From the IMG/VR virus record IMGVR_UViG_3300020196_000024: a stretch of DNA of 64,000 nucleotides. One strand, 5' to 3'. The translations under genes were made by a program, and so were the position numbers. Under the pieces are notes generated by a model. The model had not been told where the DNA came from, ran no database searches, and saw only the letters and a program-made list of their open reading frames with translations. This document shows, piece by piece, positions 23,516 through 24,480 of this stretch. The DNA comes from a virus. Numbering within the stretch: position 1 is the first letter of the stretch; each line of letters starts with the position of its first letter.

Positions 23516-23550
23516 CCCCAACCGTAAAAACGGTCAGGGTTAGGCAAAAA
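23516..23550. terminator. bidirectional stem-loop terminator (A-run, CCCCAACCGT-loop-ACGGTCAGGGTT, followed by A-run on plus and T-run on minus)
   Basis: Serves plus-strand gene 23224..23511 and marks the 3' end of the minus-strand GC-rich island. Confidence 0.5.
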
Positions 23551-23555
23551 ACTCT

Positions 23556-24480
23556 GAGAATACAAGTCTTGACAAGAGTCTTTAGGAGGATTATTTGGTT
23601 CCCTCTGTTTCCACCGTCTTTTGAACGGTAACTCTCAGTCACGGTCAATTAGATTAACCAATCCTTAAGTTGTCTGCAACTCTCTCCTTACTCATCACTC
23701 TTCGACCCTGCCGAGCCAATTCATCCTTGCGGGATTAGAGAACTTTCGTGAAAATCGTGTCGGGCTTGGGACCCTTCACGGCCGTGAACATCTCACGACT
23801 ATGTAGTGACCTGTCACACACAACTGACGAGCACTTTTCCTTGATTTAATTTAATGTTTTGGACATTGATTAGACCAAAGTTGGTTTTACGGATTAGGAA
23901 GGTAGTGGCCCGTCTGAAGCCAAGTCATCTTTTGGATGACACGATACTAAACTACCCTCTGAAGTGTCCCCACTTCCATATTTCGAGTCAACTTCATGAC
24001 TAACCTCTTGGTAGAGATAAAGTCAAGGTCTCATCAGCACCACCTGTTATGAAACTTACCTTGCCGGTGTTTAAGCCAACTCTAACATTGAACTACGCAA
24101 TTGTGACAGTGGATACTATCATTTCTTACATAAGTTCTACAGGTTACTCTTGTTGGTCTTCCGACCTCAACCAAACGACCCGAATCGCTTGGTCACCTCA
24201 CCAACTTCCCTACAGTGTTACCCTCGGTACTAGAGGTGGTGTGATATCCTGCTTGCCTACTCAAGCTCCCTTTCGGAAACCGCAGACAACCCAAAACCAG
24301 GGTTATCCACTTTATACTACTTTCGTAGTTTATTTAACGACCATAGGCGGCCAATATCTTGAGTCAAAGAACTTTTTAATTTGGAAGGAAGGGGACTTTT
24401 TACGACCCCAACCTTCCATTTGTTTCACAAAATTAAAACAGTATTTGGAGACTGTCAAATTTTTTTGAAACTTTTTTTGA
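23556..24480 (-). ncRNA. candidate structured non-coding RNA or decayed gene: GC-enriched ORF-free island downstream of tRNA-Met
   Basis: About 925 bp with GC well above flanks and no ORF over 139 aa (that ORF is low-complexity). Many local stem-loops, e.g. GGAAGG-TT-GGGG...CCCC-TT-CCTTCC. Bounded by the terminator at 23516-23550. Confidence 0.3.

Follow-up and report, generated by a model that had tools for sequence, protein, structure and literature searches.

The 64,000-nt stretch of viral DNA analyzed here (IMG/VR record IMGVR_UViG_3300020196_000024, referred to below as the window) carries, in a gene-free block downstream of a tRNA-Met gene, a full-length copy of GOLLD, a known and curated RNA family. 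A first-pass annotation made from the sequence alone had read this GC-elevated, ORF-free block as a large structured RNA on the minus strand, lying downstream of the tRNA and ending at a terminator, and that reading is borne out by a 312.8-bit match to Rfam family RF02032; the same match removes the accompanying suggestion that the RNA was novel. With all parts taken together, the locus very probably encodes a two-domain GOLLD RNA of full length that is expected to form an RNA-only cage, is most likely made from its own promoter, and has its predicted end at an intrinsic terminator (23541-23514). The features of the locus are as follows.

24689-24617, minus strand: tRNA-Met (CAT), called by ARAGORN and by the Rfam tRNA model (60.1 bits)
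24616-24356, minus strand: AT-rich spacer of 260 nt between tRNA-Met and GOLLD
24543-24606, minus strand: second copy of the cassette, just after tRNA-Met, from reading of the sequence and motif matches
24364-24458, minus strand: promoter-like leader cassette, from reading of the sequence and a conserved motif
23551-24355, minus strand: GOLLD core of 805 nt with 5' and 3' domains, from Rfam, the env-38 alignment, homologues, RNAalifold and MFE
23960-24355, minus strand: GOLLD 5' domain (396 nt), outside the Rfam model, from covariation and env-38 homology
23551-23959, minus strand: GOLLD 3' domain (409 nt), the universally conserved half, from RF02032 and covarying helices
23836-23903, minus strand: AU-rich variable linker, 68 nt unpaired, between helix arms 23914-23904 and 23835-23826
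between the GOLLD 3' domain and the terminator, minus strand: U-run, placed by sequence order
23504-23541, minus strand: intrinsic terminator including its tract, from a terminator scan

GOLLD was first described in 2009, and three-dimensional structures were solved in 2025 (PMC12286853, PMC12990946). Members of the family exceed 800 nt, occur in phages, prophages and tRNA arrays, usually with tRNA genes close by, and combine a conserved 3' region with a variable 5' region (PMC12286853, PMC12990946, PMC5737381); in one Lactobacillus prophage the level of the RNA is reported to rise during lysis. The best reference for the present locus is env-38, from the marine metagenome scaffold JCVI_SCAF_1096627009515, which cryo-EM showed to form a 14-mer (D7) cage (PDB 9MEE; Kretsch et al., Nature 2025, PMC12286853).

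The identification rests on a covariance scan against Rfam 15, the check that the first-pass annotation had itself proposed. RF02032 (GOLLD) matched positions 23959-23551 on the minus strand with 312.8 bits (E 1.2e-88; gathering score 150), and the match is untruncated, running over model positions 1-416 of 416. Across the whole 64 kb, only the tRNA and GOLLD scored above their gathering thresholds. No group I or II intron, RNase P, tmRNA, rRNA, ROOL or OLE model reached its gathering threshold in the window, and the same large-RNA models gave no match at E ≤ 1 between 23300 and 24800. At the terminator, hits to L10_leader, sar and anti-hemB (E 0.12-0.77, far under their gathering scores) were set aside as hairpin look-alikes. 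The 805-nt RNA has an MFE of -257.3 kcal/mol (z = -4.99 as compared to 20 dinucleotide shuffles). Nothing counts against membership in the GOLLD family, and as a standard Rfam scan annotates the locus, the value of the identification is mainly confirmatory; it nevertheless indicates that reading AT-rich phage DNA for GC-rich, ORF-free blocks recovers real large RNAs. The locus also adds a well-delimited, full-length GOLLD of the env-38 type, in which a candidate promoter and its leader, the two domains, the linker and the terminator can all be placed.

Homologous loci were collected by an exact-pattern scan of IMG/VR viral contigs for TGAGTAANGANAGAGT, which returned 119 loci, mostly chance occurrences, from which nhmmer picked those bearing GOLLD. 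About 30 homologous loci were found in this way in IMG/VR contigs and in LR745206, and most of them span both domains. LR745206 is a 634-kb uncultured phage in which GOLLD also lies downstream of a tRNA-Met, and several of the other homologues sit on viral contigs of 100-435 kb. The window was aligned with 20 distinct phage homologues (21 sequences in total), and homology to these 20 loci begins at about position 24360.

Upstream of that point, within the spacer, lies a conserved cassette. The GOLLD-proximal copy on the minus strand comprises a -35 box TTGACA (24458-24453), a 17-nt spacer and a -10 box TAATTT (24435-24430), followed by TGTGAAACAA (24429-24420), a leader hairpin (24417-24383) and AGTTCTTTGA (24373-24364). 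This hairpin is exactly the stem GGAAGG-TT-GGGG-(11 nt)-CCCC-TT-CCTTCC that the first-pass annotation had quoted, and it is located upstream of the conserved core. A second copy on the same strand (24606-24543) reads TTGATG-17-TATCTT, CGTAAAACAA, a GAC-GAAA-GTC hairpin and TGTTCTTTGA, and a weaker third copy (24826-24742, minus strand) precedes tRNA-Met. The order repeated in these copies is an A-rich stretch, TTGACA, a 17-nt spacer, TA(A/T)(C/T)TT, (T/C)GT(A/G)AAACAA, a short GC hairpin and (A)GTTCTTTGA.

The same arrangement recurs well beyond the window. The motif TTGACA-17-TAACTT-TGTAAAACAA-hairpin-GTTCTTTGA is conserved upstream of GOLLD in related loci; 34 distinct instances were counted, and GOLLD-bearing sequences hold 32 of these. 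Of 120 fetched loci, 24 contain the 12-mer TTTGTRAAACAA, and all but one of these (23/24) bear GOLLD; in the loci where its placement relative to GOLLD was checked, it shares the strand of the RNA and in most cases precedes the core by 40-150 nt, often as tandem copies. In the consensus of the aligned cassettes the -35 box is near-perfect, the spacing is constant at 17 nt and the -10 box reads TAnnTT. In the window the -10 box TAATTT is weak, agreeing with TATAAT at three of six positions, and a generic sigma-70 consensus scan did not call the site. From this conserved layout we infer a sigma-70-type promoter with a conserved leader, which would place the start of GOLLD near 24423, so that transcription most likely begins about 70 nt upstream of the core and the primary transcript would measure about 915 nt. 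A conserved promoter-leader cassette upstream of GOLLD in this clade may be unreported.

The sigma-70 scan did call a different site, TTGACT-16-TATGGT (24367-24340), which was rejected as a promoter because its TATGGT lies inside an invariant GGCCG..TATGGTC block that is paired in helix 1, and because the env-38 construct, which assembles correctly, begins at that block.

At the other end, transcription of GOLLD is predicted to end at the intrinsic terminator at 23541-23514, where the minus strand forms a 12-pair stem (six G-C pairs) with a 4-nt loop, followed by a U-tract (UUUUUUAUUU / TTTTTTATTT). The hairpin begins 3 nt past the stop codon of the convergent ORF 23224-23511. It had been described as a bidirectional terminator, which is not supported by the U-tract criterion: the tract is present on the minus strand alone, and on the plus strand the same hairpin is followed by AGGCAAAAAA, a run of A's.

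The tRNA-Met gene lies about 260 nt upstream of the GOLLD core on the same strand, and the rise in GC begins about 200 nt downstream of the tRNA, both farther away than the start of about 130 nt given in the first-pass annotation. Besides the window, 11 of the 20 related loci in the alignment have a tRNA-Met next to GOLLD. The main alternative to a dedicated promoter follows the co-transcription with the tRNA that the first-pass annotation had proposed: GOLLD would be made exclusively from a precursor that begins with tRNA-Met, and the cassette would serve as a processing or structural leader, which we consider possible but rather unlikely. The terminator scan found no terminator-like site in the 260 nt separating the two genes, so read-through is possible; in seven related loci tRNA-Met lies within about 10 nt of the GOLLD 3' end, and co-transcription must therefore occur there; and the proximity of GOLLD RNAs to tRNAs may reflect co-transcription (PMC5737381). 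A precursor of this kind does not, however, readily account for TTGACA, the 17-nt spacer and TAnnTT recurring at a fixed position upstream of GOLLD in many divergent loci, often in tandem, or for the presence of the cassette in loci with no upstream tRNA, and a leader that acts only as RNA would give little reason for the hexamer spacing to be kept. The conserved promoter-like cassette instead suggests that GOLLD also, or mainly, has its own promoter, to which read-through from the tRNA-Met unit may add.

The tRNA itself also deserves attention. Bacterial initiator tRNAs are identified by a 1:72 mismatch, an A11:U24 pair and three G:C pairs at 29-31:39-41. By sequence reading, the window tRNA-Met is mismatched at 1:72 (C1 x A72), has A11:U24, and shows G:C at two of the three anticodon-stem positions (A29:U41, G30:C40, G31:C39), so that it appears to carry initiator-type features. 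Nine GOLLD-bearing sequences show a 1:72 mismatch, either C1 x A72 or U1 x U72; in one of them the tRNA lies about 4 kb from GOLLD. No paper linking GOLLD to an initiator tRNA was found in the searchable library, and the observation may be unreported. As a speculation to which we attach little probability, the env-38-like clade of large aquatic or environmental phages may carry a promoter-leader-GOLLD module that is coupled to an initiator-type tRNA-Met, placed about 250 nt upstream of GOLLD or abutting its 3' end, and that acts on translation initiation. If this were true, the cage may store, protect or deliver the phage initiator tRNA, or engage ribosomes. The cassette and the linkage to an initiator-like tRNA-Met provide concrete, testable handles on GOLLD function.

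The RF02032 model describes the GOLLD 3' domain only, and the 400 nt upstream of the match (24355-23960) are the GOLLD 5' domain, as established by the env-38 alignment, the homologous loci and covariation. RNAalifold predicted 203 pairs in the 21-sequence alignment, 139 of them with compensatory changes; one long-range pair (columns 158/1057) was dropped, having zero double changes. The 5' domain accounts for 109 pairs in 21 helices, with standard pairs in 96.3% of cells, as compared to 35-42% in slid controls in which partners were moved by 1-3 columns. Both sides change in 79 of the 109 pairs (16-25 in the slid controls), and none of 500 shuffles reached the observed values. One of the GC stems quoted in the first-pass annotation, the CACCACC/GGTGAGGTG region at 24243-24194 (also written CACCACC/GGUGAGGUG), does exist and is part of a covarying helix. 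In the 3' domain, 94 RNAalifold pairs lie downstream of alignment column 615, most of them with double changes, for example at columns 768-777/917-926, 794-800/806-812 and 965-971/977-984. The linker at 23836-23903 (columns 675-757) is little conserved and variable in length, and ARAGORN found no tRNA embedded in it. The core of the RNA consists of two independently structured halves, a clade-specific 5' domain and a universally conserved 3' domain.

It could be argued that only 23551-23959 is GOLLD and that the upstream 400 nt are an unrelated spacer, leader or other element, since the Rfam model ends at 23959 and the 5' region of the family is described as less conserved (PMC12286853). This is very improbable and already refuted, as the upstream part aligns with env-38 from about residue 4 to 420 and with 20 other loci, and its 21 helices are 96% paired, with covariation at 79 pairs.

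The block is also non-coding, with no conserved reading frame. Its GC content is 0.41-0.49 in 200-nt intervals over about 23550-24400, while the flanks lie at 0.24-0.37. The 805-nt RNA (23551-24355) has 44.5% GC as compared to a window mean of 35.5% (sd 6.3% for 805-nt segments), and the interval 23516-24480 first delimited has 42.9%; the elevation reported by the first-pass annotation is thus real, although the background is about 35% and not the 30% it had assumed. Equally GC-rich or richer stretches exist elsewhere in the window: 269 of 2528 sliding segments match or exceed the block, and the top-ranked ones all fall in a collagen-repeat fibre gene at 45-46 kb. The ORF list agrees with the earlier statement that no frame exceeds 139 aa: the only ORFs of at least 50 aa in the block are 24049-24468 (plus strand, 139 aa), 23463-23648 (minus strand, 61 aa) and 24381-24557 (plus strand, 58 aa), and a Pfam search gave zero matches for all three. 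The 139-aa frame is shut in the nearest homologues, in which the longest antisense stop-free runs are 54-73 codons.

These data bear on the idea, raised in the first-pass annotation, that the block is a decayed, horizontally acquired protein gene. The higher GC content relative to the flanks and the 139-aa plus-strand ORF would fit such a pseudogene, but that ORF has no Pfam match and is closed in the closest homologues, substitutions compensate base pairing and are not codon-structured, and the match to an RNA covariance model is strong, all of which makes a pseudogene exceedingly improbable. An equally negligible probability attaches to a self-splicing intron, ribozyme or mobile-element remnant, which the first-pass annotation had also mentioned and which a large structured RNA beside a tRNA gene, a common kind of insertion site, might suggest, because the models of introns, RNase P, tmRNA and rRNA all fail to match even at E ≤ 1, the region has neither an ORF of the intron-encoded kind nor continuity of flanking exons nor terminal repeats, and GOLLD explains the full sequence.

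The surrounding DNA is phage DNA. The window encodes three collagen-repeat tail-fibre genes, one with an endosialidase-chaperone domain, together with two DNA methyltransferases, endonuclease V, glycosyltransferases and many ORFs without a family match. A megablast search of GenBank phages with 24 kb of the window found nothing; the phage has no close sequenced isolate. For a DHH-family gene nearby, the only relatives among GenBank phages lie in uncultured phages of 634-735 kb, which we take to be the 'huge phages' of Al-Shayeb et al. 2020. This GOLLD sits in a relative of the largest known phages.

Comparison with env-38 was made with the sequence in Supplementary Table 4 of PMC12286853; the copy used has 816 nt as compared to 833, so that correspondences hold at the level of regions and not of residue numbers. 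Positions 24353-23553 of the window align with env-38 end to end, over both domains, at 64% identity, and the window 5' domain aligns with env-38 residues ~4-420. In env-38, residues 1-420 form the 5' region and 421-833 the 3' region (PMC12286853), a split that agrees with the 396 + 409 nt seen here and supports 24355-23960 as the 5' domain. The two RNAs share the start motif AUGGCCGC...UAUGGUCG (GGCCG..UAUGGUC; (A/U)UGGCCGC..UAUGGUCG) and the closing hairpin GUAUUCUCAG. Both have an AU-rich internal linker, and both lie downstream of a tRNA-Met, a linkage already mentioned for env-38.

The likeness may extend to loops that make contacts in the cage. The env-38 loops L21a, which carries a palindromic GC/CG dinucleotide, and L21b, which is conserved, form inter-ring kissing contacts (PMC12286853). 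The loops CGCAA (23731-23727) and GGCA (23712-23709) of two adjacent 3'-domain hairpins in the window are identical to the aligned env-38 loops, and we infer that, at the level of regions, they correspond to L21a and L21b. In three relatives the GC of the first loop is changed to CG (UCGAA), and a GC/CG switch in this loop has been ascribed to a symmetric inter-subunit kissing loop (PMC12286853). Several helices differ from env-38 in length: the window RNA is shorter by about 7 nt in the hairpin 24281-24264 and by about 8 nt near 24088-24058, and its hairpin at 24193-24170 is longer. A hairpin loop that is probably L11a reads GAAA in env-38 and in 19 of 20 other aligned sequences, as compared to CGGCAA (24066-24061) in the window.

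The env-38 cage is capped by the 5' domains, its rings are built from the 3' domains, and a disordered linker faces the interior (PMC12286853). By homology, copies of the window RNA would be expected to assemble on their own, with no protein, into a closed homo-oligomeric cage that has this same arrangement of 5'-domain caps, 3'-domain rings and inward-pointing linker. Both the assembly and its stoichiometry are predictions from related structures: known GOLLD stoichiometries differ, with a 14-mer for env-38 and a 12-mer for Streptococcus agalactiae, and the helix lengths of the window RNA depart from env-38 at several places. Published speculations on the role of GOLLD include encapsulation or 'inhibited storage' of tRNAs or other cargo, ribosome engagement in lytic growth, and condensate formation.

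Among other large ornate RNAs, ROOL is likewise found in phages and prophages near tRNAs and forms RNA-only cages (8-mer and 6-mer), but it is unrelated to GOLLD in sequence and secondary structure, and no ROOL match is present in the window. The GOLLD RNAs of Mycobacterium tRNA arrays belong to the same family and are physically linked to tRNA genes, as in the window; there, according to Morgado et al. 2020 (cited in PMC12990946), a tRNA-Phe lies inside the linker, within large tRNA arrays, while the window linker carries no tRNA and a single tRNA is present in the entire 64 kb. The GOLLD of S. agalactiae is a member of the same family with the same conserved 3'-domain architecture and forms a homo-oligomeric RNA-only cage, a 12-mer at full length and a 10-mer for the 3' domain (PDB 9L0R, 9LMF; reviewed in PMC12990946). 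That RNA is about 700 nt long and lacks P9, P11a-c and P21b (PMC12990946). With 805 nt and an env-38-type second hairpin that has been kept, the window RNA is, judged from its sequence, of the env-38-like form and not of the Lactobacillales form.

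The tRNA-Met (window 24617-24689, minus strand) that is linked to the large non-coding RNA GOLLD carries hallmarks of a bacterial initiator: positions 1 and 72 are mismatched (C1 x A72, or U1 x U72), the A11:U24 pair is present, and of the three anticodon-stem G:C pairs in the initiator set it has two. An initiator-like tRNA-Met occurs in the window and in related viral loci L031, L100, L010, L086, L001, L039, L098 and L101, and in related loci the gene lies either ∼250 nt 5′ of GOLLD or adjoining its 3′ end. The spacer between tRNA and GOLLD contains a small hairpin, UCUCAC-UUAAA-GUGGGA (window 24504-24526, minus strand), which is maintained through compensatory changes in L031 and L018. 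This hairpin had no Rfam match and may represent either a small RNA element or the remnant of a tRNA arm. L018, a close relative, has a counterpart of the window's tRNA-Met region at 5694-6066 on its minus strand (nhmmer, 146 bits, query 7-351). ARAGORN called no tRNA in this segment, which is possibly a degenerate tRNA 5′ of GOLLD. Separately, ARAGORN predicted a tmRNA gene in each of two GOLLD-bearing viral contigs, no more than a few kb from GOLLD:

L106 6509-6896, plus strand, predicted tmRNA gene
L083 942-1344, minus strand, predicted tmRNA gene

Auxiliary genes unusual in phage are found near GOLLD, as are two long ORFs, NUDIX and DUF192, that overlap on opposite strands (window 24941-25721):

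19654-20496, plus strand, BSD2/DnaJ-type cysteine-rich zinc-finger protein
22607-23164, minus strand, SPFH/Band 7 protein
24941-25465, minus strand, NUDIX ORF
24987-25721, plus strand, DUF192 ORF
25718-26257, minus strand, PduO-type cobalamin adenosyltransferase
26276-27694, minus strand, DHH-family protein

GenBank phage relatives of the DHH-family protein occur only in uncultured phages of 634-735 kb. Because the NUDIX and DUF192 domain matches occupy separate segments (∼24992-25339 and ∼25404-25709), the real genes are probably shorter than the ORFs and divergently arranged.

Farther along the window lie:

38804-47659, minus strand, collagen-repeat tail-fibre region
51072-53834, minus strand, 920-aa fusion protein gene

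The fusion joins two glycosyltransferase units, one a GT25 enzyme and the other a PLOD-type domain (collagen lysyl hydroxylase-associated), to a methyltransferase. Its proximity to three large collagen-repeat tail-fibre genes, one of them encoding a 1048-aa product with a Peptidase_S74 chaperone domain, suggests that the phage's collagen-like fibres are glycosylated enzymatically.

A tandem cassette, conserved in the window's phage clade, is sited 5′ of GOLLD and tRNA genes:

24364-24458, minus strand, cassette copy
24543-24606, minus strand, cassette copy
24742-24826, minus strand, cassette copy

The cassette comprises, in order, an A-rich stretch, TTGACA, 17 nt, TAACTT, TGTAAAACAA, a short GC hairpin and GTTCTTTGA. 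Nearly all distinct instances (32 of 34) fall in GOLLD-bearing sequences, and the related loci carrying it include L010, L018, L025, L030, L064, L074, L086, L087, L100-L102, L105 and L106, among others. The cassette has the appearance of a sigma-70-type promoter followed by a conserved leader, an arrangement similar to the promoter/stem-loop cassettes known in T4-type phages.
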